A stretch of DNA of 64,000 bases from Chloroflexota bacterium (GTDB lineage Bacteria; Chloroflexota; UBA11872; UBA12225; JAJDUF01): assembly GCA_965238265.1 (NCBI GenBank), contig OZ250185.1, positions 4,217,497 to 4,281,496 of the forward strand, in the 5' to 3' direction. The notes beneath the pieces were generated by a model. That model was not told the DNA's origin, did no database searches, and saw only the letters and a program-made list of their open reading frames with translations. Below are positions 36,378 through 59,367 of this stretch, one piece after another; the stretch's first letter is position 1, and each line of letters opens with the position of its first letter. The translations under genes were made by a program, and so were the position numbers.

Positions 36378-37470
36378 TTAGGGCCTATAGTGTATGGAGA
36401 TGTCCTGGGCCGCGTGCTCAATCCAGTCCCAATGGGCCAAGGACCGTACCCGTTCCGGCGCCGTCTCCAACGCCGTCAGGAACTCGTTGACCGCCGCCAC
36501 CTTGTCCTCAAGACCCTCGTACACCTGCCCCTCGATCCAGCGACGGCCTTCTTCGAACACCCGCGCGGCCGGGTTCAACTCCGGGCGGTACGGTGGCAGC
36601 CCTAGCAGTGGCAGACCGACGGTCTCCACCGGGCGCCTCCGGTGCCCGCGCGCTCCATCCCCCCACCGCTTCCACATCGGTCTGCTGCTGCCGTCCCTTC
36701 AGCGCCGCGGCGAGCTGCTCGCCTTGCATGGAATCGATCCGGGTCCAGAGCAGCTTCCCCCTCCGGCCATTCCCCACCAGGAACAGGTACCGCCCCGCAG
36801 AGCCCAACTGCACCCGCTGACACACCGGCACCCCACGCGCGCCCCAGTCCCCGCCGCCCCGCACGCCGCTCATCGGCGAAGCCAACGGGGGGCTGCCCGC
36901 TCACGCCAGCCTGGCTGAACGCGTGGCCAAGCCCCCCTTTTTCTAGGACTGCTGCTGTTGCGGGGCAGCTTGGACCTGCACTGGACGGGGGAACTGCGGA
37001 GCACCCCCCCCAGCCGGTCGAGCAGCCTGTACGTGCCGCCCATCGCGTAGCCCCCCGCGTGCTGCGCGGCTGTCCAGTCCCTGATCTCGGCTGCCGTCCG
37101 AAATCTGCCGGTGGCCACCGCCTTGACCACGGACCGTTGGGCCGCCTCGCTCAGGTACGGCCGGTGGCCGCGGCCGCCCTTCCGGTGCGAGACCACCGCC
37201 CTCAGGCCGCCCTCTCGATCCCAACGCACCCCCTGCTGCACGGTACGATAGTGAACACCCCCCGCCGCTGCCACCGAGGGGAGCCGCCACCCCGACCGCC
37301 ACCGCCACAGCCGGTGAACCCTGCTTCTGGTTGAGATGGCGCGTTCGGCCAGATCGGCCGCCTTCAGCGCCGCCGGCGTATCCTGGGGATGCCCATCCAC
37401 GCTGAACGGTCTGCCGATCATGCTCACCTCCCGCACGCCGCTGCCTGTGGCACAATGGGACAATCGGCCT
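36378..37470 (-). mobile_element. Decayed IS630-family element
   Basis: HTH part (GVHYRTVQQ...GGL), FADE, LPPYRPELNPA.RV; frameshifted. Confidence 0.85.
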
Positions 37471-37505: not shown

Positions 37506-39325
37506 CAAAAATGGTATTACTTACTCCAATTGTTGGATGATGTTTCCAAGGGCAGAGTCGCGGCAGGAGATTTACTCAGTGAAGTGATTCGATCCCTCTT
37601 GGTCATACGTGATGAGAGGGACAATCGCATGGCTACTCTCTTGGCAAGCCTGCGGCCGTCCGGTGAGCGACTGCTCTTGTCGGCAGAAGAGATTGTCAGT
37701 CTCATCGAGCAACATCTTCAATGTCGAAATGCCAGCCGGCTTCCTGTGCTGGTTGTCGCGGCTGCGTATCGAGCCGCTGCCAACTGGATAGGGGAGTGCC
37801 CCCCTCACAGGGGTAGGTTTTTTAGAAACAGCACGATGACACGGCGCCCGACCGGGCGGCATGCTGGGAATGCTCACCATTCCAGCACCGTCAGGAGGGA
37901 CGCCAGGTCAGCGCCGCCCAGTGTAGCGCAATGGACCCAGATCGTCGCTACGCACCGGCCGCACTGGAGCCACTCCCAGGCTACCGTCCTCGCCTGGTGG
38001 AGTCTGGGTCTGGTGCTGGCCCGCTCCGGTGGCCTTACTGCCGTCAGCGCCTTCTTGGCCAGCCTGCTGGACCGCAAGGAGCACACCGTGCGTCAGCAAC
38101 TCCGCGAGTGGTGCTACGAAGCAGCGGCCAAACGGGGCGTCCAGCGCCAGGCGCTCGTCGTGGAAGCGTGTTTTGGCCCCTTGCTGCGGTGGGTGTTGCA
38201 TTGGTGGCAGGGGCCACAGTTAGCCGTGGCGCTCGATGCGACCACCTTGGGCGATCGGTTTGTGGTCTTGGCGATCAGCGTGCTCTACCGCGGCGGTACC
38301 ATCCCCGTGGCCTGGACGGTCTTGCCGGCCACGGCCAAAGGGGCCTGGAAAGCCGACTGGCTGCGCTGGCGGCCGCACTGGCAAGCTAGCGTGCCGGCGA
38401 CCATGACGGTCCTCGTCTTGGCCGACCGGGGACGGTACGCCCGCTGGCTGTTTCCGGCGATTGTCCACCTGGGGTGGCACCCCTTGCTGCGGGTCAACGC
38501 CGGGGGGCTGTTTCGCCCCAGCGGCCGGGCGCGCTGGCACGGGCTGCCCACGTTTGCCCCCCCCAGCCTGGCACCCGCTGGGAGGGCACCGGCACGGCGT
38601 TCAAGACCGCCCCCTGGGCTGGTACCTTCCTGGCCTGTTGGGAAGCCGACCAGGGCGAGCCGTGGCTGCTGGTCACCGCCCGCCCGCCCGCGGCCAGCAC
38701 CGCGGCCTGGTCAGCGTGTTTCGGCGGGGCTGGATCACCAGCTTGGTGGCGCTGCTCCGGCAGGCCCCGCTCCCGACCGGCCAGCTGATTCCCGAGCCGT
38801 GGCCGGCCCCGCGGGGCCCGTTGGTCGTTGGAAGACACCATGCGTTCTAAAAAACCTACCCCTGTGAGGGGGCGCCCCCTCCATCTAATGTCGCATACGG
38901 CAGCGGATACTCGGACTGGATCATTAGGGGACGTGGAGATTAGGCTGGTGAACGACGATCAGGTTGTTACCAGCTATGAGATGAAGGACCGGCGTCTCAC
39001 TATTGAAGATATTGACCAAACACTACAGAAGTTGACGGAAATCCCAAATAGTATAGACAACTATATATTCATCACGACCGATGTCATTAACGAAGAGACA
39101 AAAGCATACGCTGATAGTCTGTACGGCCGCACAGGCGGCACTGAGGTTGCCATTCTCGACTGCATCGGGTTTCTGCGACACTTCTTGCATCTCTTTCATC
39201 GCTTACGCCTTGACTTCCTCGACGCATACCAGAAGTTGGTCTTGGACGAGCCGGATAGTGCCGTGAGCCAGCCGCTCAAAGAAGCCTTCCTCGCGCTACG
39301 GCTTGTTGCTGAATCTGATGCGTGA
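37506..39325 (+). pseudogene. SacI-like type II restriction endonuclease, 5'-truncated and split by an IS
   Basis: ASRLPVLVVAAAY...SHTAAD.RTG.LGDVE...YEMK (PD-(D/E)xK); removing 37798-38873 rejoins both halves in frame. Confidence 0.7.
37800..38872 (+). mobile_element. IS4-like element with perfect 28-bp terminal inverted repeats and a decayed transposase
   Basis: CCCCCTCACAGGGGTAGGTTTTTTAGAA at 37800-37827, reverse complement at 38845-38872; ALDATTLGDRF, IPVAW, LADRG. Confidence 0.88.
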
Positions 39326-39349: not shown

Positions 39350-41086
39350 GTGGATAGCACGATGACTCGCGTCTCTAGGCTACCGGCGTCGGCGAGATGG
39401 CCGTGGCGGGAGCTGGTGGGGTGGCTGGCCGTGGCGCTGCTGGTGCGGGCGGCCACGCTGGCGGTGGTCACGCAGCCGGGCTACATGGACGCCTCCTACT
39501 ACTACCATGTCGCCGAGAATCTCGTGGCCGGGCGCGGCCTAGTCACCGATGCGGTCTGGAACTTCCTCGATCCGCGCACCGATCTGCCGCGTCCGAGCAA
39601 TGCCTACTGGCCGCCGGGTACGTCACTGGTCGCAGCGGTTGGTGGCTGGCTGTTTGGCCCCGGCTTTCGGAGCGCCCAGGTGCCGATGGTGCTGCTCTCG
39701 GCGGCCATGGTGCCACTAGCGTATCTGTACGGTCGGCTGCTCCTGGGCACACGACGCGGTGGTCACGGCGTCGCGGCGTTGGTGCTGTGCAGCGCAGCCT
39801 ACTATCCATATTGGGTGACGACCGATACCTTCACGCCGTATGGCCTGCTCGGAGCCGGTTGCTTTCTGCTGCTCGGCTTGGCGCTCCGGTCTGAGTCGGC
39901 GAGCCGCGCTTGGCTGGTCGGCGCTGTCATCGGCGCTGGCGTGCTCGCCGGCTGGTCGCAGATGGTGCGTCCCGACGGACTGCTGCTGGCGACCATCGCC
40001 GTCGGCACGGCGGCTGCGGTCGGCTGGCGGCGGCTGACCTACCCCCTAGCCCCCTCCCGCCAGGGAGGGGGGACTAGCTCTCTCTCTGGGGTAGGAGCAC
40101 CGCATGCCGTGCCCCCACGGTGCTGGCGTGCGGTCTGGGGGCGGTGGCGCACCGCGGCGCTCTGGGCCACCCTCGCAGCGGTTGGCTATCTGCTGGGCGC
40201 CCTGCCCTGGTATGTGCGGAATTGGCTCACCTGGGGTAGCCCGCTACCGATGGCCGGGGGGCAGACGATGTTTCTCCGCAGATTTGACGACATCTTCGCC
40301 TACGGCATCGAGGTCAGCCCGGCGGCGCTCGTGGCCGATGGCTGGAGCCTCGTGCTCACCGGGCGGCTCGCCGGGCTTATCGGCAATTTGGTGCCCCTGT
40401 TTCAGATCGCGCTGTTCGCGCTGGCGCCGCTGGCAGCCCTCGGTGTGCGCCGCCTGTGGCGCGAGCCGGCGGCGCGACCGGCGCTGCTCTACGTCGGCAT
40501 CCTCTATATCGGCATGTCGCTCGCTTTCCCGACGACGAGCCCTCGCGGCAGCTTTTTTCATGGGCTGACCCCGGCCTTACCGGTGCTGTATGCGGCGCTG
40601 CTCCGCGGCCTCGACACCGCCGTCGCGTGGGCTGGCTCCTGGCGTCGCTGGGACTTGGCCGAGGCCCGCGCGATCTTTCTGGCGGCGGCGGTGGTGTTCC
40701 AGATTGGGGCCGCCGGCTACCTGGCCTGGCAATTCAGCATAGTGCGGGGATGGGAGGTGCCGATTGCGCGGGCGGCTGCCGGCTGGCTCGACGAGCATGC
40801 GCCGCCGGGCGAACCGGCCCTGTTTGTTGACCCGCCGGCGTTCGCCGTGGTGGCTCGGCGGCCGGCCGTGATGGTGCCAAGCAACAGCGTGGAAGCGCTC
40901 CTCACGGTCGCGCAGCGGTTCCGGGCGCCCTGGCTCATCCTAGGCCCACGTGGGATGCGTATTGCGGGCCGGCTGTATCTCGACCGCGTACACGACGAGC
41001 ACTTCGAGTGGAAGGCCGACATCGGCGAGGCGCGCGTGTATCGTGTGCGTCTCGTCCCCTCCGCTGCCACGCAAGCCCGCGACTGA
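39350..41086 (+). CDS. GT-C (GT39/ArnT-like) membrane glycosyltransferase
   Basis: YMDASYYYHVAENL..GRG, YWPPG, RPDG, PWYVRN; many TM helices. Confidence 0.78.
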   Translation: MDSTMTRVSRLPASARWPWRELVGWLAVALLVRAATLAVVTQPGYMDASYYYHVAENLVAGRGLVTDAVWNFLDPRTDLPRPSNAYWPPGTSLVAAVGGWLFGPGFRSAQVPMVLLSAAMVPLAYLYGRLLLGTRRGGHGVAALVLCSAAYYPYWVTTDTFTPYGLLGAGCFLLLGLALRSESASRAWLVGAVIGAGVLAGWSQMVRPDGLLLATIAVGTAAAVGWRRLTYPLAPSRQGGGTSSLSGVGAPHAVPPRCWRAVWGRWRTAALWATLAAVGYLLGALPWYVRNWLTWGSPLPMAGGQTMFLRRFDDIFAYGIEVSPAALVADGWSLVLTGRLAGLIGNLVPLFQIALFALAPLAALGVRRLWREPAARPALLYVGILYIGMSLAFPTTSPRGSFFHGLTPALPVLYAALLRGLDTAVAWAGSWRRWDLAEARAIFLAAAVVFQIGAAGYLAWQFSIVRGWEVPIARAAAGWLDEHAPPGEPALFVDPPAFAVVARRPAVMVPSNSVEALLTVAQRFRAPWLILGPRGMRIAGRLYLDRVHDEHFEWKADIGEARVYRVRLVPSAATQARD

Positions 41087-42015: not shown

Positions 42016-43174
42016 TGTACAGACGGGACACATAGTGGACACCCGTTCGGGGACATGGTGGACACCTTCCACGCCCAGTAGCCTGGGGGCGAGGAGGTAC
42101 CACATGCCCTGGCAGGAGGTCTCGATCATGTCCTTGCGCCGCGAGTTTGTCGCGCTGGCCCCGCAGGAGGGTGCCAACCGCCGCGCCCTCTGTCGTCACT
42201 TCGGGATCAGTCCCACCACCGGCTACCGCTGGCTGCACCGCGACCAAGCCGCAGGCGCCGCCGGCTGGCAGGACCGCTCCCGCCAGCCCTACCGCTCGCC
42301 CCAGCGCACGCCCCTCGCCACGGAACAGGCGGTCTTGGCCATCCGGGACGACCATCCCGCCTGGGGTGGACGCAAAATCCGCGCCACGCTGGACACGCAG
42401 CACGCCACGCCCTTGCCGAGCGCCAGCACCATTACCGCCAGCTTGCGCCGCCATGCCCGGCTGGCTCCGCCGGAGCCAGCCCCGCAGCGGGCCTGGCAAC
42501 GCTTCGAGCGACCGGTGAGCGCCACGGGACGGTCCAGGCGCAACTGATCCAGGTCTTCACCCGCTATGGTTTGCCGCGCACCATCTTGGCCGATAACGGC
42601 CCACCCTGGGGCGCCGGCACCACGCCGCCGGTGCCTACCGCGCTGACGGTCTGGCGGCTGCGCTTGGGGGTGCGGGTCATGCATGGGCGGCCGTATCATC
42701 CCCAAACGCCGGGCAAAGCGGAGCGCTTTCAGCGCACGCTCCAGGCCGCAGTCTTGCGCGACCGGACCTTTCCCGATCTGGCGACGTGTCAACGCCACTT
42801 TACGCGCTGGCGCACGGTCTCCACCGGCGAGCGGCCGCACGAAGCGCTCGGGGACCAGCCACCGGTGAGCCGCTCCCAGCCGAGTCCGCGCCCGTTCCCG
42901 ACGGAGTTGCCCCCGATTGAGTATGCGTCCGGGGCTGCGGTGCGGATGGTGCAAGACAAGGGAGTGATCCGGCTGCACGGCCAGTATTACCGCGTGGGGC
43001 AGGCCTTTCGGGGCTATCCGGTCGCGGGGCAGCCCACGCTGGAGCCGCAGGTGGTCACGGTGCAGTTCGGTGACGAAACCATTGCCGAATTGGACTTGAC
43101 GCAGCCCGAGGCGTGATACTGACCCTGTCCACCAGGTCTCCGCACACCTGTCCGCCATGTCCCCCGTCTATACA
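42016..43174 (+). mobile_element. Decayed IS481-family element
   Basis: TGT...ACA ends (TGTACAGACGGG / CCCGTCTATACA) with internal GGACA repeats; MPWQEVS, HPAWGGRKI, DNG, HPQT.GK.ERF; frameshift/deletion near 42510-42550. Confidence 0.9.
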
Positions 43175-43442: not shown

Positions 43443-46595
<3,153 letters not shown>

Positions 46596-46706
46596 TACGA
46601 TGCCTCGATCGGCATTTTTGGATCTGAACTCCGCAGTTGACTCGCTCTTCTTCGCCCTGCTTTCCACACCGGGAAGCAGGGGCCTTATGTGTGGCTATCT
46701 TGAGAT

Positions 46707-46828
46707 GGTCTTGGTGACTCTAGCGAGGCTGCCCCACCCGTTCCCATCCCGAACACGGTAGTGAACTGCCTCAGCGCCGACGATACTGCTAGCGAGAGCG
46801 AGTGGGACAATAGGTCGTTGCCAGGGCC
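46707..46828 (+). rRNA. rrf: 5S rRNA
   Basis: CCCATCCCGAAAC-like core (CCCATCCCGAACAC), terminal stem, followed by a U-rich tract. Confidence 0.93.
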
Positions 46829-46974: not shown

Positions 46975-47814
46975 TTAGTAGGGAAGGTGCGTGTCGGGGT
47001 GCTCTTGCAGGTACTTGCCCAGGCGGACGCTCAGGTTCTCCTGGAGCTGGATGCTCAACCCGCCGTCAACCACCAGTGCGTGGCCGGTGATGAAGGCGGC
47101 CTCGTCCGAGCAGAGGAAGACGACCGCGTTGGCAATGTCCACGGGCCGGCCGCAGCGGCGCAGTGGATACTGCTGCTCGAAGAACCGTAGCCCGCTAGGA
47201 TTCTCAGCCCACATGCGCTCCTGAATCCGGCCGGTCACCATATGTCCGGGGCAGATCGCGTTCACGCGAATACCCCAGGGGCCAAACTCCGTTGCCAACT
47301 GGCGCGTCAGCCCGATCACTGCTGACTTGCCGGCCTCATAGACCAGGTGCCCCGGCGCCATGAGCAGACCATGCACGGAGGCGATGTTGACGATGCTGCC
47401 GCCGCCGGCTTCCTGCATCGCCGGTACGGCGTATTTCGCCGCCAGGAAGATGGACTTTGTGAGCACAGCCATGCCCTGGTCCCAGCCCTCCTCGCTGACC
47501 TCAAGCGCACTGCCGGCACCGACCGGGTTGATGACCGGAAAGGCGTTGTTGACGAGGATGTCGAGCCGCTGCCAGCGATCCAACGTGTACGACACCATTG
47601 CCTGAACGTCCTGGTGGCTCCCTACGTCGGCATGGAAAGCCGCGGCCACGCCCCCGGTCGCTGCGATACTGGCTACCCGTCGGTCGGCTGCCGCGTCATC
47701 AATATCGGCGATGAGCACGGTAGCCCCCTCCTCGGCCAGACGGCGGGCGGTGGCGCCACCAAGCCCCTGCGCGCCGCCGGTCACCAGCGCTACCTTGTTG
47801 GCCAGTCGTTCCAT
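46975..47814 (-). CDS. Classical SDR oxidoreductase
   Basis: TGGAQGLG, NNA, NIAS, YEAGK, IRVNAICPG. Confidence 0.92.
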   Translation of the reverse strand: MERLANKVALVTGGAQGLGGATARRLAEEGATVLIADIDDAAADRRVASIAATGGVAAAFHADVGSHQDVQAMVSYTLDRWQRLDILVNNAFPVINPVGAGSALEVSEEGWDQGMAVLTKSIFLAAKYAVPAMQEAGGGSIVNIASVHGLLMAPGHLVYEAGKSAVIGLTRQLATEFGPWGIRVNAICPGHMVTGRIQERMWAENPSGLRFFEQQYPLRRCGRPVDIANAVVFLCSDEAAFITGHALVVDGGLSIQLQENLSVRLGKYLQEHPDTHLPY

Positions 47815-48197
47815 ACTTCATCTCCTCAGCGCTCAGAGCGCCTTTCGTTGCTGCAAGTGATAGGGTAGCCACCTCATCGTTCTGCATCCACTCGCGTATC
47901 GTGCGTTGGAGCGAGATGACCACTGTGGGTCTGGCGCCTAATCCACGCCGGATTGCTGTCAAGACCGCCGGAGCCAGCGAAGCTGCGCCTCACCATCCAT
48001 CTGTTCCAACTCATTGCAGTAGTGGGGGCAGTGGTGGCAGTGACTCCAGTACCGTGTTCCGCATCATGGCTCGACCTACAATGTCCGGTCGGGTATCATT
48101 GCTAACCACCCATTGGGTATGTCGTTAACTTCATGCCGGTAGGCGCTGGGCAGTACCCCACCATACGTGGCCGCGGCTAGTCTATGGTTAAGCTGGT

Positions 48198-50834
48198 ATG
48201 CATATGCGTCGGCTGATCCGCCTAGGGTGTGCCTTGCTGCTGGGGCTGCTCCTGGCCGGGCTGACTAGCGGCGTGCCGACGGCGCAGGCCACCGCGCCGG
48301 GCATCCTCATCACCGAGGTCCTGGCGGCGAATGCACGCACCGTGACCGATGACCGGGGCCGCTATGCCGACTGGATCGAGCTGCACAACCCTACGGCAGC
48401 GCCCGTCTCCCTCGCCGGCTACACCTTGACCGACGACCCCGCCGAGCCGGCCAAGTGGCCTTGCCGGCCGCTACGCTGGCGCCGGGGGCTTTCTTGGTGG
48501 TGTGGGCCTCGGGGTCAGACCAGGTGACACCGGAAGGCTGGCACACGAACTTCCGTCTGAGCGGCGGTGGGGAGTACGTGGGCTTGTTCGGTCCGGACGG
48601 ACAGGTGGTAGACGAGGTAACGTTTGATGAGCAGGAGACGGATGTCTCGCTGGGGCGGCTGGGGACGGTGTCCGACCGATGGGTATTCTTCCCAACCCCG
48701 ACACCCGGCGCGGCGAATACCACTGGTCCACGGCGCCGCCGGGCGCGCCGCCCGTGATAGTCGCGCCGGGCAGTGGGCGCTATGCCGGCCCGGTGACGGT
48801 GCAGTTGACGGCGCCGGTGCCGGGAAGCACGGTGTACTACACGCTGGATGGGGCCGATCCGACGGTGGGTGGCCAGGAGTACACGGCGCCCTTGGCGGTG
48901 CGGAGACGACGGTGCTGCGGGCGGTGGCGCTGCGCGAGGGCGTGCCGGTGAGTGCCGTGACCACGGCGACGTATCTGGTGGGGGAGAGCACCGGCCTGCC
49001 GGTGCTGTCGCTGGTGACGGAGCCGGCCCACCTGTGGGACGAGGTGACGGGAATCTACGTCAACGCGGAGGGAGCGCGGCCGGGAATGGGAGCGGCCGGT
49101 GACGGTGGAGTGGCTATCGCCGGAGGGGAGCCGGGCTTCAGTGTGGGAGCGGGGCTACGCATCCATGGGTGGGGGAGCCGGGGGCAGGCCAAGCAGTCGT
49201 TCCGGCTGTACTTCCGGGGGGAGTATGGGCCGCGGGAGTTAGCGTATCCGCTGTTTGGGGTGGAGCCGGGGCAGACGTATGACCGGCTGGTATTGCGGGC
49301 GGGTGCAACGACAGTGGCCGTGGTTGGGGATGTTTCGGGCTGGGGCAGTGTACGTGCGGGATCAGCTGGTCCGGGACCTGCACGGGGCGATGGGGCAGGT
49401 GGCGGCGCGGGGGCGCTGGGTGGCGCTGTACCTGAACGGGGCCTACTGGGGGCTATACAACCTGACCGAGCGCATTGATGACAGCCTTCCTGGCCACGCA
49501 CTTTGCCTATGACTACTGGGACGTGACTCGCCGTGCCGGGGAGCATGAAGCGTGGGATGCGTTTGTGGACTGGATTACCGGCACGGACTTGAGTGCAGCG
49601 GCGCAGTATGAGCAAGCGTTGCAGCAACTCGATATCGAGAACTTCACCTCCTTCATCATCCTCGAGTTGTGGGCCGGAGACACCGATTGGGGTGCCGGCA
49701 ACCCGTATGCGGCACGGATGCAATATGGTCCTGATACTGCGGTGGCGGCTGTTCGTGTGGGATGCCGATGTGACCTTTGGCTTGGACCACAGGATTGATG
49801 CCACTGCGGACCTTTCTTTCACCCAAGCAGTAATTGACAGTGGCGCGTGGGGGCCACTCATCCCGATCTTGGCCAGCCTTATGGCCAGTCCCCAGTATCA
49901 AGCCTACTTCACCGGCAGGTGAGCGCATCTCGCCGGGGCGCTGGCTACCGAATCCGTGCGCGACCGCTTCGCCTCTTTAACGACGGAGTTGCGCCCGGCC
50001 ATCGCGGCGGAAGCGGCCCGCTGGCTGCCCGAGCAGGAGCCGGCGGTGCTGGTGGCGCAGTGGGCAGCGGACATGCAACGGATCGCGGATTCGCCGCCAG
50101 TGAGCAGCGGCTGCGCCAGTTGTCCAGAGACGCTTCCCGCTGCTCCCGCAGTTTTCGAGATCGGACTGCTCCGCCGCCGCTGCCGCCGAATACCCGGATT
50201 GCCCTGCTGGTGCATCACCCCGCCGAGCTGTCGCCGGGCGACGCGGCCGTCGTGGCGCACCTCGCGACGCGGGGCGTGACGGTCTCCGTGATCGGGACTC
50301 ACGACGACAGTCCGCATGATCCGGCGCTGGTCGCCGCGAGCCACGATCTGCTCTTGGTCAGTTCCAGTATCCGGCTGCTCGACACGAGCGGCGCGCTATG
50401 CCCAGACGACTACGCCGGTGATCTTCTGGGAGCCGCTGCTGCTAGAGGCGACGCGCGTACCGCTGGCGCCTTGGGGGGGCACGCGCCCGGAGCAAACCGA
50501 CATTCGGATTGTCGACGCGGATCATCCGATCACCGCGGGGCTACTGGCTGACCAGCCGCTGCGGGTGGTGCGCCGGCCCGATACGTTCAGTGTGGCCTAC
50601 CCGCCCAGCGGTCCGGGAGTACACGTACTGGCAAGGTATTTGACGGGTGGCGACGCGGCGCTCATGGTAGCGGAGGCGGGAGCCGAGTTGGCGAATGGGC
50701 AGCCGGCGAAGGCCCGGACCGTCTTCTTGTTCTGGCATCACGACACGTTTCACCGGAGCACGGGCGAGGCGGTCCGCCTCTTTGACCGGGCGGTGGATTG
50801 GGCGCTCGGTCTCCTCCCGGCCGATGGCGCTTGA
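48198..50834 (+). pseudogene. Secreted lamin-tail/chitobiase-C/CotH kinase gene with many frameshifts (pseudogene or consensus errors)
   Basis: Colinear with 52307-58174 across several frames: DWIELHN, YYTLDG.DP, KQSFRLYFR, LYLNGAYWGLYNLTE, WDAD, RLFDRAVDWALG. Confidence 0.8.
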
Positions 50835-50861
50835 GCGAACGAGCGAGAAGGCCATGCAGCC

Positions 50862-51593
50862 ATGTTGATCCTGCTCTACAAAAAGGGCTTCGGGCAGCCA
50901 TACTACGAGACCAAGTTCGTGTTGCCGGTGGAGTCCGGTCCGGTCCTCGCTGCTTTTCTGCGGCGGGTCTATCCGAGTAGCTCACCGTACTGGCAGAGCA
51001 AGCTCACGACGACCTACTACGACGATCTGGCCCTCAGTTCCTATTGGGAATCGCGGGACGGTCTGCTGAACAAGATGAAATACCGCTTTCGTCGGTACTT
51101 CAACCCCAGTGGTGTGGGAGCCGACTACGGTATCGAGATCAAGCGGCGGGAAGGCCCACTGGTCAACAAGACCAAGATCCTCCTGAAGGCTGCCGGTACG
51201 AGGCTTTCGACAATGGCCGATTTTGGCAGCTTGCTCGACCGTCTCCGTAGCGTGCCGGGAGCGTCGGCGGCCGCGTTGCGTACCCACGTTCGCCGGTGCC
51301 TACGACCGACGTTGACGATTTCGTGTGAGCGCCTGCGATTTGTGAACCAGCGTGCCCAGGAACGCTATAGCCTCGACCAAAACATCGCTTGTGTGGCCAT
51401 GCCCGGGCTAGCGGGCTGGAGCCGGCGCCGGGTGGCGTTTCCCTACACCGTCTTCGAGATCAAGTCGGCAGCAGCGGTGCCGGCAGCGCCCTTCCTCAGG
51501 ATGTTTTCGTTGGAGCCGGTGTCGTTCTCGAAGTACGCCTACGGTATCGCCTCGCTACTGGAAGAAGATGACCGGGATGGAAAGTATCAGTAG
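50862..51593 (+). CDS. VTC-domain (polyphosphate polymerase-like, CYTH tunnel) protein
   Basis: ETKF, YYDD, KYRFRRY, EIK, RYSLD, VFEIK, FSKY. Confidence 0.8.
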   Translation: MLILLYKKGFGQPYYETKFVLPVESGPVLAAFLRRVYPSSSPYWQSKLTTTYYDDLALSSYWESRDGLLNKMKYRFRRYFNPSGVGADYGIEIKRREGPLVNKTKILLKAAGTRLSTMADFGSLLDRLRSVPGASAAALRTHVRRCLRPTLTISCERLRFVNQRAQERYSLDQNIACVAMPGLAGWSRRRVAFPYTVFEIKSAAAVPAAPFLRMFSLEPVSFSKYAYGIASLLEEDDRDGKYQ

Positions 51594-52269
51594 CCTGCTC
51601 GACGGCTCCGCCGTTGCCGCCGGTCAGCGTGGGATAATCGAGTTTCTCTTGGTGGTGGCGGTGAGTATGGCGCTGGGCTTCGGCTATGCCTTGCTCTACC
51701 AGCGTTATTTCACCGGCAGTGAGGCGCTCAACGAAAGTCTGTACCGCAGCTTCGCGCTGCTCTTGCCGGCCGTGACGACAATCTTCTGGGTGATCCAGTT
51801 TTCGATCCCCCTCTCCTTGGGCTTACTCGGCGCCCTCTCGTTTGTCCGCTTCCGCACACCGATCAAGCGTGCGGAGGATATCGCCTTCATCCTGCTCGTG
51901 ATTGCCACGGGCTTGGCCTGCGCGGTCTACCAGTTTGCTGTAGCCGCCGGGCTGTTGCTGGCCGTCGGGGGCTACACCCTGCTCAAGAACCGCTTTGTGC
52001 TGCGCTGGCTCCAGCCGGCCCAACAGGCCAGCCTCGTCGTCAGCGCAAAGGCTCCGGAAGGCGTGGACGAGCGCCTCCTCGCCGATATCGTCGCCACTAT
52101 CCGTGAGACGTCCGGAGCTGATCCCGAGATCGTCAGTGCCGGGAGTTACGAAGGCGAGTTCAATGTCTACCTCACCATCGCGACGCCGCGGAACGGGAGC
52201 CAGGCCCAAATGCTGCGGTCCTTGGACCAAATCGAAGGGGTCGAAAAGGTTGACATCTACTACTCCTAG
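51568..52269 (+). CDS. DUF4956-family membrane protein
   Basis: LSLGLLGALSFVRFRTPIK..EDIAF...IATGLAC; overlaps the VTC gene. Confidence 0.88.
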   Translation: MTGMESISSLLDGSAVAAGQRGIIEFLLVVAVSMALGFGYALLYQRYFTGSEALNESLYRSFALLLPAVTTIFWVIQFSIPLSLGLLGALSFVRFRTPIKRAEDIAFILLVIATGLACAVYQFAVAAGLLLAVGGYTLLKNRFVLRWLQPAQQASLVVSAKAPEGVDERLLADIVATIRETSGADPEIVSAGSYEGEFNVYLTIATPRNGSQAQMLRSLDQIEGVEKVDIYYS

Positions 52270-52306
52270 CCCGCAATGGTCCCAGACTGCGTAGCCAGAG
52301 GCCTAC

Positions 52307-55300
52307 ATGCACCGACTGATCCCCCCGGGGTGTGCCCTGTTGCTGGGGCTGCTCTTGGTCGTGCTATCCAGCGGCGCGCCAGTGGCACAGGCCGCCCCGC
52401 CTGGCGTCCGCATCACCGAGGTCCTGGCGGCGAATACGCACACGGCGCTCGATGACCAGGGTGGCTATGCCGACTGGATCGAGCTGCACAACCCCACGGA
52501 CACGCCCATCTCCATCGTCGGCTACACCCTCACCGACGACCCCTCCGAGCCGACCAAGTGGCCCCTACCCGTCACGACGCTGGCACCGGGCGCCTTTCTG
52601 GTGGTCTGGGCGTCCGGCCTAGACCAGGTAACACCGGAAGGCTGGCACACGAGCTTCCGGTTGAGCCGCGCCGGGGAGTACGTGGGCTTGTTCGGGCCGG
52701 ACGGGCAGGTGGTGGACGAGGTGACGTTCGGCCCGCAGTTGGCGGATGTCTCGCTGGGACGACTGGGAACGGTGTCCGACCAGTGGGTGCCCTTCCCCAC
52801 CCCGACGCCCGGCGCGGCGAATACGACCCGGCACCGCCGGCGGGCGCCACCGGACGCGCCACCGGTGGTAGTCACACCGGGCAGTGGGCGCTATGCCGGC
52901 CCGGTGACGGTGCGGCTGCAAGCACCGGTCGGGAGAGCTACGGTGTACTACACGCTGGATGGGGCCGATCCGACGGTGGAGGGCCAGGCGTACACGGCAC
53001 CCTTGGAAGTGACGGAGACGACGGTGCTGCGGGCGGTGGCCCTGGACGAGGGCGTGCCGGTGAGTGCCGTGACCGCGGCAACGTACCTGGTGGACGAGCG
53101 CACTGACCTGCCGGTGCTGTCACTGGTCACGGACCCGGCGCATCTATGGGACGAGGCGAAGGGAATCCACGTCAACGCGGAGGGGCGCGGCCGGGAATGG
53201 GAGCGACCGGTGATGGTGGAGTGGCTATCACCGGAAGGAGCGTTGGGCTTCAGCGTGGGGGCCGGGCTACGCATCCATGGGAATATCAGCCGGCTGCGTG
53301 TGCCCAAGCGGTCGTTCCGGCTGTACTTCCGGGGGGCGTATGGGCCACGCGAACTGGAGTATCCGCTGTTTGGGACGGCGCCGGGGCAGACATATGGCCG
53401 ACTGGTGTTGCGGGCGGGGGTGGATGACGGTTGGCTTTGGCCGTGCGAGGACAAGCCGGGGTGCTACAGAGAGCAGGCGGTGTTCCTGCGGGACCAGCTA
53501 GTGCGGGAGCTGCACGCGGCGATGGGGCAGGTGGCGGTGCAGGGGCGTTGGGTGGTGCTGTACCTGAACGGGGCCTACTGGGGGCTATACAACCTCACTG
53601 AGCGCATTGACGCTACTTTCCTGGCCACGCATTTCGACGCCAGCACGTGGTATGCCCACTCGAAATCAGGCGAGTTGACCCCCGGGAGCGCGAACCGCTG
53701 GTACCGGTTTGCGGACTGGCTGGCCCGGACGGACTTACGCGCGGCGGCGCAGTACGAGCAGGCGGTGCAGTATTTCGATGTCGAGAACTTCACCGGGTAC
53801 TACCTGCTGAACCTCTGGGCGCGGAACACGGACTGGCCGCACAATAATTGGGTCGTGGCCCGCCCGCGGGAAGGCCCGGACACCCGCTGGCGCTTCATCG
53901 TCTGGGACGCCGAGTCGACGTTCGAGCGCGAGGAGGACACGTTCGAGCGCGTGGTGACTGGTGGCACCCGGCTCGGGCAGGTGCTCGCCAGCTTGCTGCA
54001 AAACGCGCAGTATCGCACGTATTTCGCCGCGCAGGTCGAGCGCCATTGGGCCGGGGCGCTGGACACCGCAGCCGTGCGCGAACGACTGGCCGCGCTCGCC
54101 GCCGCGCTGCGCCCGGAAATGGCGGCCGAAGCGGCCCGCTGGCTGCCGGAGCAGGAGCCGGCAGTGCTGGTGGCACAATGGGAGGCGGAGCTGCAACGGA
54201 TCGCGGATACCTTGGACGCCGATGCCCAGCGTCTGCGCCAGTTGAACGACCCGGAGACATTGCGGCAGCCGCTCCCGCAGCTCGCGGCGCCGGTGCCGCC
54301 GGTGGTGGTCACACCGGGCAGTGGGCGCTTTGCCGGCCCGGTGACGGAGACGACGGTACTGCGGGCGGTGGCACTGGACGAGGGCGTGCCGGTGAGTGCC
54401 GTGACCACGGCAACGTACCTGGTGGGGGAGCGCACTAACCTGCCGGTGCTGTCGCTGGTCACGGACCCGGCTCATCTGTGGGACGAGTCGACGGGTATCT
54501 ACGCCAACCCGGAGGAGCGGGGGCGGAGCTGGGAGCGGCCGGTGACGGTGGAGTGGCTATCGCCGGAGGGGGAACGGGGCTTCAATGTGGGAGCCGGGCT
54601 ACGCATCCACGGGGGTGGGAGCCGGTTGACGGCCAAGAAGTCGTTCCGGCTGTACTTCCGGGGGGCGTATGGACCGCGGGAGCTGGCGTACCCGCTGTTT
54701 GGGGCGGCGCCGGGGCAGACGTATGACCGGCTGGTGCTGCGGGCCGGGTACAACGACAGTTGGTCGTCTGCGGGGAAAGCTTGGTCGTCCGGAGGGGTAG
54801 TGGTGTACGTGCGGGACCAGTTGGTGCGGGAGCTGCACGGGGCGATGGGGCAGGTGGCGGTGCAGGGACGCTGGGTGGCGCTGTACCTGAACGGGGCCTA
54901 TTGGGGGCTGTACGACCTGACCGAGCGCATTGACGCTACTTTCCTGGCCACGCATTTCGACGCAAGCACATGGTATGTCAACAAAGCCGATGTCTTGCAC
55001 CGCTGGTACCGGTTTGCGGACTGGCTGGCCCGGACGGACTTACGCGCGGCGGCGCAGTACGAGCAGGTGGTACAGCAGCTCGATATCGAGAACTTCACCA
55101 GTTACTTCCTGCTGAACATCTGGGCGCAGAACGTGGACTGGCCGCACAATAATTGGGTCGTGGTGCGCCCGCGAGAGGGGCCTGACGGGCGGTGGCGATG
55201 GATCGTTTGGGACGCCGAGACGACGTTCATGAACACGGAAAACACGTTCGAGCGCGTGGTGACTGGTGGCACCCGGCTCGGACAGGTGCTCGCCAGCTTG

Positions 55301-58174
55301 CTGCAAAACGCGCAGTATCGCGCCTACTTCACCGCGCAGATCGAGCAGCAACTCGCCGGGACGCTGAACACCGAGTCTGTGCGGGGCCGTCTCGCCGCGC
55401 TGGCCGCCGAGTTGCGCCCGGAAATGGCGGCGGAGGCGGCCCGCTGGCTGCCCGAGCAGGAGCCGGCAGTGGCAGTGGCACAGTGGGAAGCGGCGCTGCA
55501 ACAGGTCGCGGATTCACTGGACGCCAGCGAGCAGCAACTGCGCCAGTTGAGCGATCCGGAGACGCTGCGACAACAACTCCCGTCGCGCTCGGCGTCGGAG
55601 GCCCCGGCATCGGTGGCGCCGGCAGGCCCACTGGGTGTCATTATCACCGAGGTCCAGGCAGCCAATACGCATACGGCACTCGATGACCAAGGTGGCTACG
55701 CCGACTGGCTGGAGTTGCACAACCCCACGGACATGCCCGTCTCCCTCGCCGGCTACACCCTGACCGACGACCCTGCCGCGCCGACCAAGTGGCCCTTGCC
55801 GGCCAGCACCCTGGCGCCGGGGGCCTTTCTGGTGATCTGGGCCTCCGGCGTGGACCGGGTGGCGCCGGAAGGCTGGCACACGAGCTTCCGGTTGAGCCGC
55901 GCCGGGGAGTACGTGGGCTTGTTCGGTCTGGACGGGCAAGTGGTGGACGAGGTGACGTTCGGCCCTCAGTTAGCGGATGTCTCGCTGGGGCGGTTGGGAA
56001 CGGCGTCGGACCAGTGGGTGTTCTTCCCCACCCCGACACCCGGTAAGGCGAATACCACCAGTCCACGGGCACCACTGGACGCGCCTCTAGTGGTGGTCAC
56101 GCCGGGCAGTGGGCGTTTTGCTGGTTCGGTGACGGTGCAACTGGAGGCCCCGCTGCCGGGCAGCCTGGTGTACTACACGCTGGATGGGGCCGATCCGACG
56201 GTGGAGGGCCAGGCGTACACGGCACCCTTGGAAGTGACGGAGACGACGGTGCTGCGGGCAGTGGCGCTGCAGGACGGCGTGCCGGGGAGCACCGTGACCA
56301 CGGCGACGTACCTAGTGGGGGCGGGTATTGGCCTGCCGGTCGTGTCGCTGGTCACTGATCCGGCCCACCTGTGGGATGAGGCAACGGGCATCTACACCAA
56401 CGCGCAGAAACGCGGCCGGCGCTGGGAACGGCCGGTGACGGTGCATGGGCTATCGCCAGAAGGGGAGTTGGGCTTCAGTGTGCCAGCCGGGCTCCGCATC
56501 CGCGGCGGGGAAAGCCGGACGGACGCGGCCAAGCAGTCGTTCGAGCTGTACTTCCGGGAGGAATATGGGCTGCACGAGCTGGCCTATCCGCTGTTTGGGG
56601 CGGAGCCGGGGCAGACGTATACCCGGCTGGTGCTGCGAGCCGAGGGCCAGGATAGCTGGCAGTGCGGCGAGGCGCCCCAGTGTGTGGAGGAGGCGGTGTA
56701 CGTGCAGGACCAGGTGGTCCGGGAGTTGCACGGGGCGATGGGCCAGGTGGCGGCGCGGGGACGCTGGGTGGTGCTGTACCTGAACGGAGCCTACTGGGGA
56801 CTGTACAACCTCACCGAGTACCTTGATGACACCTTCCTGGCCACGCACTTCAACACCAGCGCCTGGTATACCAGCGCAGCAGCGGGAGAGCAGGCCCCCG
56901 ACAACGCGCACCGCTGGCGCCTGGTTGCGGACTGGCTGGCCAGCGCGGACTTAAGCGCGGCAGCGCAGTACGAGCAGGCGGTGCAGCAGCTCGATATCGA
57001 GAGCTTTACCGCCTTCGTCATCCTCCACCTGTGGAACGGGGACACCGCTTGGGATAGCCAGGACTGGTATGCCGCCCGCAGCCGGAGTGGGGCTGATACC
57101 CGCTGGCGACTGTTCGTGGGAGATGCCGGCGTGCCCCCTGACGTGTATGGCCGGCCCGGTCGTGAGGCGCGTAGTGCCCTCATCCCGATCCTGGCCAGCC
57201 TCCTGGCAAATCCCCAGTATCAAGCCTACTTCACGGCACAGGTCGAGCGGCATCTCGCCGGGGCGCTGGCCACCGAGTCCGTGCGCGGACGCCGCGCCGC
57301 GCTCGCAGCCGCTTTACGACCGGCCATCGTAGCGGAGGCGGCCCGCTGGGTGCCCGATCAGGAGCCGGCAGTGGCGGTGGCGCAGTGGGAAGCGGCGCTG
57401 CAAGGGTTCTCGGATGCGCTGGACGCCAAGGCCCAGCGACTGCATCAACTGAGCGACCCGGAGACGTTGCGGCAGCAGCTCCCGCAACTCGCCGCAACGG
57501 CGGCAGCGGCGGGGCCGCCGCCGCTGCCGCCGGGCACCCGGATCGCCTTGCTGGTGCATAACCCCGCAGAGCTGACGGAGGGCGATGTGGCTGTCGTAAC
57601 GCACCTGGCAGCGCGGGGCGCAACGGTCAATGTGATCGGAACCGACGACGGCAGCGCCCCTGATCCGGCGGAGGTCGCCGCGCGCCACGAGCTGCTCTTG
57701 ATAAGCTCCAATATCCAGGACCTCGACGCAGCGGCGCGCTATGCTCAGACTGCGACGCCGTTGATCTTCTGGGAGCCGCTGCGGCTGCTGGAGGCGACCC
57801 AGTTGGCACGCTGGGGGGGCACGCGCCCGGAGCAAACCTATATTCGGATTGTAGATGCGGACCATCCGATCACCGCGGGGCTACCGGTTGACCAGCGGCT
57901 GCGGGTGGTGCGCCGGGCCGATACGTTCAGCGTCGCCTGGCCATTTAGAGGGCCAGGGGTGCAAGTGCTCGCAAAGCACCTGTTTGGCGACGACTCGGCG
58001 CTTCTGGTGGCGGAGGTGGGAGCCGAGTTATCGAATGGGCAACCGGCGCAGGCCAGGACCGTCTTCTTGTTCTGGCATCACGACACGTTTCACCTGAGCA
58101 CGAGCGAAGCGATCCGGCTCTTCGACCGAGCGGTGGATTGGGCGCTCGGCCTCTCCTCCGGCGATGGCGCTTGA
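52307..58174 (+). CDS. 1955-aa secreted protein: 2 lamin-tail domains, 3 chitobiase-C/Fn3-associated domains, 3 CotH kinase domains and a C-terminal alpha/beta domain
   Basis: Signal peptide; three LRI.G..SR...K.SF.LYF / LYLNGAYWGLY.L.E / DW..NN / WD modules. Confidence 0.88.
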   Translation: MHRLIPPGCALLLGLLLVVLSSGAPVAQAAPPGVRITEVLAANTHTALDDQGGYADWIELHNPTDTPISIVGYTLTDDPSEPTKWPLPVTTLAPGAFLVVWASGLDQVTPEGWHTSFRLSRAGEYVGLFGPDGQVVDEVTFGPQLADVSLGRLGTVSDQWVPFPTPTPGAANTTRHRRRAPPDAPPVVVTPGSGRYAGPVTVRLQAPVGRATVYYTLDGADPTVEGQAYTAPLEVTETTVLRAVALDEGVPVSAVTAATYLVDERTDLPVLSLVTDPAHLWDEAKGIHVNAEGRGREWERPVMVEWLSPEGALGFSVGAGLRIHGNISRLRVPKRSFRLYFRGAYGPRELEYPLFGTAPGQTYGRLVLRAGVDDGWLWPCEDKPGCYREQAVFLRDQLVRELHAAMGQVAVQGRWVVLYLNGAYWGLYNLTERIDATFLATHFDASTWYAHSKSGELTPGSANRWYRFADWLARTDLRAAAQYEQAVQYFDVENFTGYYLLNLWARNTDWPHNNWVVARPREGPDTRWRFIVWDAESTFEREEDTFERVVTGGTRLGQVLASLLQNAQYRTYFAAQVERHWAGALDTAAVRERLAALAAALRPEMAAEAARWLPEQEPAVLVAQWEAELQRIADTLDADAQRLRQLNDPETLRQPLPQLAAPVPPVVVTPGSGRFAGPVTETTVLRAVALDEGVPVSAVTTATYLVGERTNLPVLSLVTDPAHLWDESTGIYANPEERGRSWERPVTVEWLSPEGERGFNVGAGLRIHGGGSRLTAKKSFRLYFRGAYGPRELAYPLFGAAPGQTYDRLVLRAGYNDSWSSAGKAWSSGGVVVYVRDQLVRELHGAMGQVAVQGRWVALYLNGAYWGLYDLTERIDATFLATHFDASTWYVNKADVLHRWYRFADWLARTDLRAAAQYEQVVQQLDIENFTSYFLLNIWAQNVDWPHNNWVVVRPREGPDGRWRWIVWDAETTFMNTENTFERVVTGGTRLGQVLASLLQNAQYRAYFTAQIEQQLAGTLNTESVRGRLAALAAELRPEMAAEAARWLPEQEPAVAVAQWEAALQQVADSLDASEQQLRQLSDPETLRQQLPSRSASEAPASVAPAGPLGVIITEVQAANTHTALDDQGGYADWLELHNPTDMPVSLAGYTLTDDPAAPTKWPLPASTLAPGAFLVIWASGVDRVAPEGWHTSFRLSRAGEYVGLFGLDGQVVDEVTFGPQLADVSLGRLGTASDQWVFFPTPTPGKANTTSPRAPLDAPLVVVTPGSGRFAGSVTVQLEAPLPGSLVYYTLDGADPTVEGQAYTAPLEVTETTVLRAVALQDGVPGSTVTTATYLVGAGIGLPVVSLVTDPAHLWDEATGIYTNAQKRGRRWERPVTVHGLSPEGELGFSVPAGLRIRGGESRTDAAKQSFELYFREEYGLHELAYPLFGAEPGQTYTRLVLRAEGQDSWQCGEAPQCVEEAVYVQDQVVRELHGAMGQVAARGRWVVLYLNGAYWGLYNLTEYLDDTFLATHFNTSAWYTSAAAGEQAPDNAHRWRLVADWLASADLSAAAQYEQAVQQLDIESFTAFVILHLWNGDTAWDSQDWYAARSRSGADTRWRLFVGDAGVPPDVYGRPGREARSALIPILASLLANPQYQAYFTAQVERHLAGALATESVRGRRAALAAALRPAIVAEAARWVPDQEPAVAVAQWEAALQGFSDALDAKAQRLHQLSDPETLRQQLPQLAATAAAAGPPPLPPGTRIALLVHNPAELTEGDVAVVTHLAARGATVNVIGTDDGSAPDPAEVAARHELLLISSNIQDLDAAARYAQTATPLIFWEPLRLLEATQLARWGGTRPEQTYIRIVDADHPITAGLPVDQRLRVVRRADTFSVAWPFRGPGVQVLAKHLFGDDSALLVAEVGAELSNGQPAQARTVFLFWHHDTFHLSTSEAIRLFDRAVDWALGLSSGDGA

Positions 58175-58347
58175 GCGAGAAGGCCATGGTGCCACGATGA
58201 CCTGGCTCTACGGCAGTGATTTCGGGCCACTGCGGCGGGGATTGACGGCGGCAGCGGGTGGTGCTATTGTCCAACGTATCTTGAGGGTACCGGCTTTTCG
58301 GCTATGCGTAGGGGGTAGTGGCGCATGCGGACAGCGGCAGAAGACTC

Positions 58348-59367
58348 ATGGTAGCAATCAGAGTTTTGGTCCGGCTTGGGCACCGCCTACGGTGGGCCTT
58401 GCTAATCCTTGTGACGTGGGTGGGTACTGCGACTGCGGGTTACCGGATCATCGAAGGGTGGTCTTGGTTCGATGCCTTCTACATGACCATTATCACCATC
58501 TTCACCATCGGCTATCAAGAAGTACACCCGTTGACAATCGGCGGTCGCATCTGGAGCATTGTGGTGATCGGCGCCGGTTTCCTCATCGTCGCCGCGGTCG
58601 CGTCGGAGTTGGCGAGTGGTTCCCTGGCACGCTTGTGGGGAGAGAACAAATTGGAACGGGAGCTCAGTGATCTGCACGATCACTACATCATCTGCGGCCT
58701 GGGCCGGGTAGGTTGGCAGGTCGCCCTGGCGCTGCACCAGCAGGGTGCCGTCTTTGGCGTGGTTGATCCAGCGAAGAATAAGCATGTGGATGAGCTGCGG
58801 AACTGGAACGTGCCGTACTTGGCCGGCGATGCGACCGAGGACGCGGTGCTGCAGCGGATGCGCATAGACAGGGCACGCGGCCTGGTCACGGCGGCGAGTA
58901 CCGATGCCATCAACATCTATTTGACGCTCACAGCGCGCGGTCTCAACTCGGACCTCGTCATCGCGGCTCGCGCGGAGGAGCCGAGCGCCGAGAGCAAGCT
59001 GTATCGGGCCGGAGCCAACTACGTGCTTGCGCCCACGGCGGTCGGTGGGCGCAAGCTCGCCACGCTGCTCACGCGCCCACTGGTGGCCGAGTACATCGAT
59101 TCCGTGCTCTACGGTGAGGAACTACCCTTCTTCACGGAGCAGGTGGAGCTTGGGCCAACTTCTCCCCTGTGTACACTCACCATTGCCGAGATGCAAGCGC
59201 GGATTGCCCCTGAGCACCAAGGGCCGGCCGTGATCGCCCTCAAGCCGGCCGGAGAAGGGCTGTTCGCTCCCCATCCTCCCGGGACGAGAAAGCTGGTCGC
59301 CGGCGACGTGCTCGTGGTTGCCGGGCGAGAAGAGGAGGTCGCGCCGCTGCGCGACCTGAGCCACTAG
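58348..59367 (+). CDS. Potassium channel with TrkA-N/TrkA-C (RCK) domains
   Basis: FYMTIITIFTIGY filter, HYIICGLGRVG, GDAT. Confidence 0.9.
   Translation: MVAIRVLVRLGHRLRWALLILVTWVGTATAGYRIIEGWSWFDAFYMTIITIFTIGYQEVHPLTIGGRIWSIVVIGAGFLIVAAVASELASGSLARLWGENKLERELSDLHDHYIICGLGRVGWQVALALHQQGAVFGVVDPAKNKHVDELRNWNVPYLAGDATEDAVLQRMRIDRARGLVTAASTDAINIYLTLTARGLNSDLVIAARAEEPSAESKLYRAGANYVLAPTAVGGRKLATLLTRPLVAEYIDSVLYGEELPFFTEQVELGPTSPLCTLTIAEMQARIAPEHQGPAVIALKPAGEGLFAPHPPGTRKLVAGDVLVVAGREEEVAPLRDLSH

Follow-up and report, generated by a model that had tools for sequence, protein, structure and literature searches.

A VTC-DUF4956 gene pair with exported CotH proteins in a Chloroflexota chromosome as a possible membrane-spanning phosphate module

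The present work concerns a group of adjacent genes encoding a VTC-domain protein, a DUF4956 membrane protein and CotH-family proteins, located in a 64,000-nucleotide stretch of DNA (contig OZ250185.1; hereafter the window) that is part of the closed 4.38-Mb chromosome, 99% complete, of an uncultured soil-type Chloroflexota. The closest described system belongs to the Pel locus. As described by Whitfield et al. (2020, PMC7112168), cotH, a gene for a poly-phosphate polymerase, and the genes for DUF4956 and DUF4832 proteins adjoin pelDEADAFG as accessory genes in streptococci and clostridia, and a variant of this accessory set is found in bifidobacteria. In S. intermedius, three of the Pel accessory genes, SIR_1592-1594, were the subject of a 2025 mBio paper (PMC12345266): deletion of the DUF4956 homologue led to more Pel and deletion of the CotH homologue to less Pel, and with either deletion aggregation in artificial sputum medium was more than halved. 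The same authors state that the three-gene arrangement was not found outside the Pel locus. A similar gene order was described in the C. perfringens locus NELoc-2 (Lepp et al. 2010, PMC2879425), in which the gene for a VTC protein (230-232 aa) precedes those for a cytoplasmic-membrane protein (222-226 aa) and CotH, the gene labels being 'VTC domain - tubulin/FtsZ - ... - CotH'. Judging from its size and position, this membrane protein is probably a DUF4956 protein. NELoc-2, which we set beside the present locus by description only, differs from it in being strain-variable and necrotic-enteritis-associated, with a chitin-synthase-like gene nearby.

The gene set itself is therefore already known, as the Pel accessory set, and is biochemically uncharacterised; full-text literature searches turned up no bacterial VTC or DUF4956 protein that had been characterised biochemically. 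An earlier note on this DNA had mentioned the gene association from other bacteria and had added that it knew of no functional characterisation. The association is indeed in print (2020 and 2025), and the second statement holds for biochemistry only, deletion phenotypes having been published as well (PMC7112168, PMC12345266). The present locus resembles the Pel accessory set in that the same three families are adjacent, CotH is secreted, the VTC protein has a polyphosphate-polymerase domain, and the DUF4956 protein is described in both cases as an MgtC-like membrane region with an ACT domain. It differs in being Pel-free and in that its CotH is a three-unit protein of 1955 aa accompanied by a broken copy. 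What is new here is the Pel-free and PPK-free setting, the triple CotH formed via internal duplication, the fast turnover of CotH genes, and a second kind of partner, Cthe_2159. We propose, with a probability of roughly 40%, that the genes form a membrane-spanning phosphate module in which polyphosphate is made at the membrane and passed outward to exported partner proteins.

Relatives of the individual components were also compared. The eukaryotic VTC complex (Vtc4/Vtc3 or Vtc2/Vtc1; 3G3Q, 7YTJ, 8I6V) has a homologous catalytic tunnel domain, the aligned residues of which are kept here, and the idea of synthesis-coupled membrane passage derives from it. Unlike that complex, the present locus has no SPX and no DUF202, and its membrane partner is a separate DUF4956 protein; moreover, whereas the eukaryotic complex fills the vacuole, the product proposed here would leave the cell. 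Bacillus CotH (5JD9/5JDA) belongs to the same Pfam family, and the aspartates aligned with D228 and D251 of B. subtilis CotH are kept; it is, however, a single-domain protein of ~360 aa, whereas the proteins described here are exported, multi-domain, repeated and encoded beside VTC-DUF4956. Bacillus CotH acts in the mother cell. The spore-coat setting is absent here, the CotH proteins having signal peptides and several domains and the neighbours being an SDR gene, rRNA genes and a K+ channel; the B. subtilis control genome contained no VTC and no DUF4956. The Fam20 kinases (Fam20C for protein, Fam20B for xylose) are kinase-fold enzymes that work outside the cytosol on secreted proteins or glycans, and CotH resembles them in this mode of working and by a distant fold relation. 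The Fam20 enzymes use ATP imported into the Golgi, and we know of no comparable ATP supply outside the bacterial membrane. Finally, MgtC matches DUF4956 in architecture, a helix bundle at the N-terminus being followed by an ACT-like domain, but the sequence similarity is marginal (best E 0.016) and MgtC has no known link to VTC.

The features that make up the locus are as follows.

48198..50834, + strand: broken CotH paralogue (signal peptide, lamin-tail domain (LTD), CHB_HEX_C, one CotH domain, C-terminal domain), delimited by three-frame translation, tblastn of intact orthologues and frameshift-aware alignment
50862..51593, + strand: VTC-domain protein, 243 aa, PF09359
51568..52269, + strand: DUF4956 membrane protein, 233 aa, with five predicted helices (13-147) and an ACT-like domain (152-232), PF16316 and AlphaFold2
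52307..58174, + strand: exported 1955-aa protein with three CotH kinase units, from Pfam, translation and relatives

Three intact genes, all on the + strand, were thus confirmed by Pfam: VTC, DUF4956 and the giant triple CotH. The VTC and DUF4956 genes overlap by 26 nucleotides (nt), and the gaps are 27 nt between the broken CotH and VTC and 37 nt between DUF4956 and the giant CotH. Four tight co-directional genes in the order CotH, VTC, DUF4956 and giant CotH had been expected; the last three are as described, and the first is not an open frame. A scan of positions 47700-58500 with promoter and terminator consensus sequences gave 2 promoter-like and 5 terminator-like sites, which is not above shuffled sequences. 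The whole genome holds one VTC gene, one DUF4956 gene and six CotH genes, two of them broken. The three further intact CotH genes, located elsewhere in the genome, have 895-928 codons and encode signal peptides and the same C-terminal domain.

PPK1 (two domains), PPK2 and Ppx-GppA had no match in this closed genome, where VTC is the sole recognisable polyphosphate enzyme found. PelG likewise had no match in the genome, and no Pel-like family was detected among the 18 neighbouring proteins scanned. DUF4832 matched none of the scanned neighbours, no family search having been aimed at it. The module is Pel-independent in its own organism.

The linkage of these families was analysed in 301 Chloroflexota genomes, the present one included; as kin are not independent, no statistical test was applied. 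Two unpublished genomes (G038, G272) enter only the tallies 22/301 and 146/301 (G038 also among the exceptions mentioned below), and the statements on 18 genomes are unaffected by them. Matches were found to VTC in 22 genomes, to DUF4956 in 22, to CotH in 15 and, over the cut-off, to Cthe_2159 in 13. Of the 22 VTC-positive genomes, 18 have DUF4956 directly behind VTC in the same orientation, and an overlap of 4 or 26 nt between the two genes is also present in four other Chloroflexota loci (L019, L022, L023, L026). The pair is present in 14 of the 15 CotH-positive genomes, each time with CotH within ~1.4 kb. An exported partner, CotH and/or Cthe_2159, was found in all 18 pair-bearing genomes, which belong to 11 genera; among the 283 genomes that do not have the pair, CotH was found in one and Cthe_2159 in two. 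Twelve of the 13 Cthe_2159 genomes are VTC-positive, even where the genes are unlinked. In the other Chloroflexota, the partners carry lipobox-like signal peptides or N-terminal anchors. The four pair genomes that have no CotH all have Cthe_2159, which adjoins the pair in three of them (G011, G021, G291), as listed here.

L019:2177-4012, L021:8820-10697 and L032:5139-7094: Cthe_2159-family (PF14262) lipoprotein-like proteins beside VTC-DUF4956, CotH missing

PPK1 was detected in 10 of the 18 pair-bearing genomes, compared to 146 of the 301 overall; the pair is therefore neither a substitute for PPK1 nor dependent on it.

Beyond the phylum, a scan for DUF4956-motif loci identified at least 593 loci, of which the best 80 by similarity, not a random sample, were analysed (79 of them new). 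The narrower alignment A5 was used for the scan, alignment A2 being too diverse. These best 80 loci span many phyla, with Lachnospiraceae, Saprospiraceae, Planctomycetota, Verrucomicrobiota, Vicinamibacterales and Pelagibacteraceae among them. Using our own profiles, VTC was found in 71 of the 79 loci, 55 of which have it as the immediate neighbour in the same orientation; of the eight loci without VTC, seven end at a contig edge. CotH was found in 52 of the 79, a count from a Chloroflexota-built profile that may miss some, and Cthe_2159 in two. The other recurrent neighbours are exopolysaccharide genes: a GT2 synthase with PilZ, a sugar transferase, an epimerase, Wzy_C and AlgX-like genes. 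The linkage of VTC, DUF4956 and CotH suspected in the earlier note is strong, given the exported partner in 18 of 18 pair genomes and the recurrence across phyla, and the counts within and beyond the phylum rule out a chance co-location of the gene set.

In 14 control genomes, VTC and DUF4956 were found in the same three, those of B. thetaiotaomicron, C. glutamicum and M. acetivorans, and CotH was found in these three and in B. subtilis. A search of 1.84 billion representative sequences with a 15-member profile gave 8079 DUF4956 representatives (50% identity; E up to 0.001), mostly of 220-230 aa. The module is thus widespread, in many phyla and often in surface-glycan loci, and its presence in tractable carriers that match all three families makes the question of its function directly testable. 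Some metagenome-predicted proteins are fused frames, either DUF4956-CotH (P0057, P0126, P0018) or DUF4956-Cthe_2159 (P0017; P0017 and P0018 are singletons). Their junctions coincide with the signal or anchor that belongs to the partner, or lie within a domain; all four therefore look like read-through, deletion or chimera and were not used as evidence. No fusion between VTC and DUF4956 turned up, lengths of ~450-520 aa having been sampled only among the best 150 representatives.

The VTC protein matches PF09359, its sole family, over profile positions 3-234 of 235 (E 2.7e-19; 70.1 bits, cut-off 23). It starts 14 residues before the VTC domain, it gave no SPX hit in Pfam, and neither a signal peptide nor a membrane segment is present. 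A word-indexed homologue search gave 13 hits, of which 11 had an identity of at least 70%. The single sequence had no match among solved structures, and a profile was required. Profile A1 was built from 21 sequences, namely the protein itself, 3 database relatives and 17 other Chloroflexota proteins. With this profile, the catalytic domain of yeast Vtc4 (3G3Q) was matched at E 5.6e-21, and the Vtc4 structures 3G3Q, 8I6V and 7YTJ at E 5.6e-21 to 5e-14, whereas the matches to the non-catalytic Vtc2 and Vtc3 were much weaker (E 6e-12 and 1.7e-7). Residues K18, R75, R77, E92, K94 and K103 align with Vtc4 K200, R264, R266, E279, K281 and K294; additionally, E199/K201 align with the Vtc4 sequence 'lEvK' and S223/K224 with 'fSKf' (positions were counted along the printed alignment, in 8I6V numbering). 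We take the aligned Vtc4 positions to be catalytic and tunnel residues. Across the 21 sequences, the aligned residues and the EvK and SK motifs show no variation or almost none. The family assignment made beforehand is therefore borne out by a full domain of the catalytic type, which makes the protein, as judged from sequence, a candidate Vtc4-type polyphosphate polymerase.

The giant protein was scanned against Pfam in pieces, and its parts are the following.

52307..52393, + strand: signal peptide, residues 1-29, with a basic start, Leu-rich core and AQA-A site, read by eye; the same N-terminus occurs in intact paralogues
52388..52729, + strand: LTD 1, residues 28-141, PF00932
52877..53086, + strand: CHB_HEX_C / Fn3_assoc 1, residues 191-260, PF13290 and PF13287
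53267..54217, + strand: CotH unit 1, residues 321-637, PF08757, E 1.1e-33
54599..55513, + strand: CotH unit 2, residues 765-1069, behind a truncated remnant of CHB_HEX_C, PF08757, E 6.9e-39
55634..55960, + strand: LTD 2, residues 1110-1218, PF00932
56102..56311, + strand: CHB_HEX_C / Fn3_assoc 2, residues 1266-1335, PF13290 and PF13287
56492..57412, + strand: CotH unit 3, residues 1396-1702, PF08757, E 2.3e-20
57536..58171, + strand: C-terminal domain of ~210 aa, residues 1744-1955, no Pfam family

Unit 2 as a single sequence gave no match to solved structures, and a profile was again required; that of 17 CotH domains matched B. cereus CotH (5JD9) at E 8.6e-34. As shown by the alignment, the catalytic Asp and the metal-binding Asp are present in all three units. 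They align with D224 and D247 of the 5JD9 chain, which correspond to B. subtilis D228 and D251 (offset 4), and mutating either D228 or D251 was reported to inactivate the B. subtilis kinase (PMC7821199). The Asn of the H-N motif and the Trp before the metal-binding Asp, nearly invariant in the 17 sequences, are kept in units 1 and 2. In unit 3, the Asn is replaced by Asp and the Trp by Gly, with a deletion after it, and because of these two substitutions unit 3 may be weakened or inactive. With the signal peptide read by eye and both catalytic aspartates kept, the earlier description of the CotH proteins as exported members of a kinase family is upheld.

The downstream CotH proteins of five relatives have ~1540-1570 residues. 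Residues 1-659 of the giant protein correspond to residues ~1-700 of the relatives (match ~19-700), and residues 660-1955 to their residues ~200-1560, which indicates an internal tandem duplication of one CotH unit. The C-terminal domain (57536-58171) gave no Pfam hit, and with tblastn it matched only the same genome and close relatives; it was found only in the CotH paralogues of this lineage, where it is conserved. Its model, with a predicted local distance difference test (pLDDT) value of 64.9 and only the first half confident, weakly resembles class-I glutamine-amidotransferase or ThuA-like folds (best Foldseek E 3.8e-3).

The DUF4956 protein matches PF16316 over residues 57-133 (E 1.9e-9; 37.9 bits, cut-off 30.6), with a weak ACT_4 match at the C-terminus. 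The AlphaFold2 model (pLDDT 77) consists of five helices followed by a beta-alpha-beta-beta-alpha-beta domain (152-232). In 15 members, a VRFRT motif is located after helix 3, with G85, S91 and R96 invariant and R94 nearly so. ACT-like folds match the C-terminal domain with Z 8.6-10.9, the C-termini of MgtC proteins among them (2lqj, Z 9.2; 7qa5, Z 9.1); these fold searches aligned residues 148-233 only and barely covered the helix bundle. At E up to 1, DUF4956 was matched by 15 of the 15 members and MgtC, weakly, by three (best E 0.016). The protein appears to combine a helix bundle of the MgtC type with an ACT-like domain at its C-terminus. Its charged residues are distributed in a way that suggests an N-out, C-in topology, in which both the basic VRFRT motif and the ACT-like domain would lie on the cytoplasmic side, next to VTC. 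The predicted complex of VTC and DUF4956, from alignments of 21 and 15 rows, reached scores of 0.01 and 0.00 (mark 0.32), which count as evidence neither of binding nor of its absence.

In the proposed membrane-spanning module, the VTC protein would act like yeast Vtc4 and, on the inner side of the membrane, build polyphosphate from the gamma-phosphate of ATP. It would do so in complex with DUF4956, which would pass the chain outward or present it on the outer face. The exported CotH would be anchored near the surface through its LTD, CHB_HEX_C and C-terminal domains and would act with the polymer, either by using it as phosphoryl donor where ATP is lacking or by attaching or organising it on surface proteins or glycans. 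If true, this would explain how kinase-fold enzymes can work outside the bacterial membrane, where ATP is scarce. It would also explain how polyphosphate gets outside bacterial cells without PPK enzymes, to be compared with the pool of the B. cereus group, for which a 2026 preprint reports extracellular polyphosphate made without PPK1 or PPK2, with no known source and no VTC4 homologue. A more specific version, which we consider unlikely, holds that VTC-DUF4956 exports polyphosphate independently of PPK, that the exported CotH proteins use the polymer and not ATP to modify the surface, that this is the only polyphosphate pathway of the organism, and that the same core serves Cthe_2159 elsewhere.

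It is important to mention the observations that weigh against the proposed module. Four VTC-positive genomes have no adjacent DUF4956 (G013, G038, G176 and the weak hit G211), and in the complete genome G094 CotH occurs with neither VTC nor DUF4956. DUF202, the membrane family of yeast VTC, was matched by none of the 15 DUF4956 members at E up to 1; the comparison with the Vtc1/Vtc4 channel proposed in the earlier note is not supported by this search, the protein looking like an MgtC-type bundle with an ACT-like domain instead. The only fold and sequence matches of DUF4956 are to ACT-like domains and, weakly, to MgtC, which is known as a regulator (of ATP synthase and PhoR; PMC12345266) and not as a channel. 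In S. intermedius, cells deleted for the VTC homologue SIR_1593 continued to aggregate and to produce Pel, and no change in either was reported (PMC12345266); a strict donor-supply model would predict otherwise. Lastly, B. subtilis CotH, where assayed, uses ATP (PMC7821199).

According to another explanation, which we consider rather unlikely, the polymer stays inside the cell, and the genes form a membrane-associated polyphosphate or phosphate-homeostasis module in which DUF4956 is an MgtC-like regulator with an ACT-like sensor, co-regulated with the exported proteins and not feeding them. The MgtC-like architecture of DUF4956 (2lqj, 7qa5 and the weak Pfam matches of 3 of 15 members) is consistent with this, and VTC could be the general polyphosphate synthase of the cell because no PPK1, PPK2 or PPX was found in the genome. 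An OmpR-type regulator and a HAMP histidine kinase adjoin the pair in 7 of 17 Chloroflexota loci (L021, L023, L024, L026-L029); neither is found at the pair in the present window. The increase in Pel after deletion of the DUF4956 homologue also looks regulatory (PMC12345266). However, exported partners accompany the pair in 18 of 18 genomes and PPK1 is neither enriched nor depleted, and a dedicated add-on fits these counts better than storage does. Moreover, the core is common to two unrelated kinds of exported partner, as one would expect if something were delivered to the outside.

The occurrence of Cthe_2159 beside the pair bears on a further explanation as well, a distinctly unlikely one in our judgement, according to which polyphosphate is exported as an end product (for the matrix, cation binding or mineral control), CotH and Cthe_2159 serve to bind, anchor or trim the polymer, and any kinase chemistry of CotH draws on another donor. 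Cthe_2159, a carbohydrate-binding beta-helix family without a kinase fold, replaces the adjacent CotH in three genomes and also co-occurs on the scale of whole genomes, exopolysaccharide genes recur as neighbours in other phyla, and extracellular polyphosphate is a reported bacterial product (2026 preprint). Against this, the catalytic set is complete in CotH units 1 and 2, which suggests that they catalyse a reaction and do not merely bind.

Less probable still is the explanation that the VTC protein is not a polymerase but a CYTH/TTM phosphohydrolase or another nucleotide enzyme that signals to DUF4956 or energises it. The tunnel fold is common to the triphosphatases and adenylyl cyclases of the CYTH/TTM superfamily, and our literature searches turned up no assayed bacterial VTC protein. 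The score for the VTC family, and the E-values for Vtc4 as compared to Vtc2 and Vtc3, argue against it. In addition, the N-terminal motif is E-x-K, as in the VTC alignment, unlike the E-x-E-x-K motif of TTM hydrolases.

The CotH paralogue upstream of VTC (48198-50834) is spread over all three frames, as observed by translation, and tblastn gave repeated frame changes. The frameshift-aware alignment with the closest intact orthologue shows ten frame changes (five of +1 and five of -1) and, at 49920, a stop codon in frame. Once the frames are corrected, the copy shares 683 of 872 aligned residues with the orthologue and keeps both catalytic aspartates. The rest of the window is densely filled with long open frames. 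Eight loci of related species, with VTC 91-95% identical, were used for comparison: four have one intact upstream CotH copy, two have two, one has an intact and a split copy, and one has none, so that at least one intact copy, with an open frame of 881-908 codons, is present in seven of the eight. The split copy, one of two upstream copies in a related closed genome (L016:5407-7970), consists of overlapping frames of 381 and 689 codons; the present genome is thus not the only one with a broken CotH. A second broken paralogue is located outside the window (C1:2351089-2353716), with at least seven frame switches relative to an intact paralogue.

Reads were also consulted for the frameshifts, although no public run contained more than 0.55 of the sampled words. 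Contigs from four public runs have one-base indels at 48458/9, 48900, 49124, 49481-4 and 49914-24, which are among the frameshift sites, but these contigs represent relatives or paralogues, because substitutions lie near the indels. The broken copy has 78% identity, compared to 72-88% among intact copies, and because it is no more diverged than these, its breaks may be recent or may be consensus errors. We conclude that the upstream CotH, a member of a gene family that is repeated and varies between strains, either is a pseudogene, through recent decay, or reflects a consensus error. Around a constant VTC-DUF4956 core, the CotH genes turn over fast, by duplication, internal duplication and breakage. 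It is very improbable that the whole locus is in decay in this strain and has ceased to function as a system: the ten frameshifts, the second paralogue broken likewise and the two altered, nearly invariant positions of unit 3 would suit it, but VTC, DUF4956 and the 1955-aa gene are intact, VTC is highly similar to that of the relatives, three more intact CotH paralogues exist in the genome, and the broken copy lies within the identity range of the intact ones.

The locus is flanked upstream by a 23S-5S rRNA pair and an SDR gene, and downstream by a TrkA-type K+ channel, a tRNA-Pro and an ABC transporter. The 23S rRNA (43443-46596, + strand) matches over 3154 nt, compared to a model of 2925 nt, and probably contains insertions; the 5S rRNA (46710-46826, + strand) lies just upstream of the locus. 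No 16S rRNA gene was detected anywhere in the window, and the 16S gene may therefore be unlinked. In the relatives, a membrane-protein gene of 398 codons is located at the rRNA site instead. Elsewhere in the window, the open frames at 34977-35924 (- strand), 36642-37334 (+ strand), 37530-38867 (+ strand) and 42289-43158 (- strand) have no Pfam match, and their neighbour at 39350-41086 has a weak PMT_2 (GT-C-like) match. A low-GC island at 24532-25964 (- strand; guanine plus cytosine content 0.52, compared to ~0.65) encodes a 311-aa protein without a Pfam family and an overlapping DUF6932 protein, and may be an acquired two-gene module.

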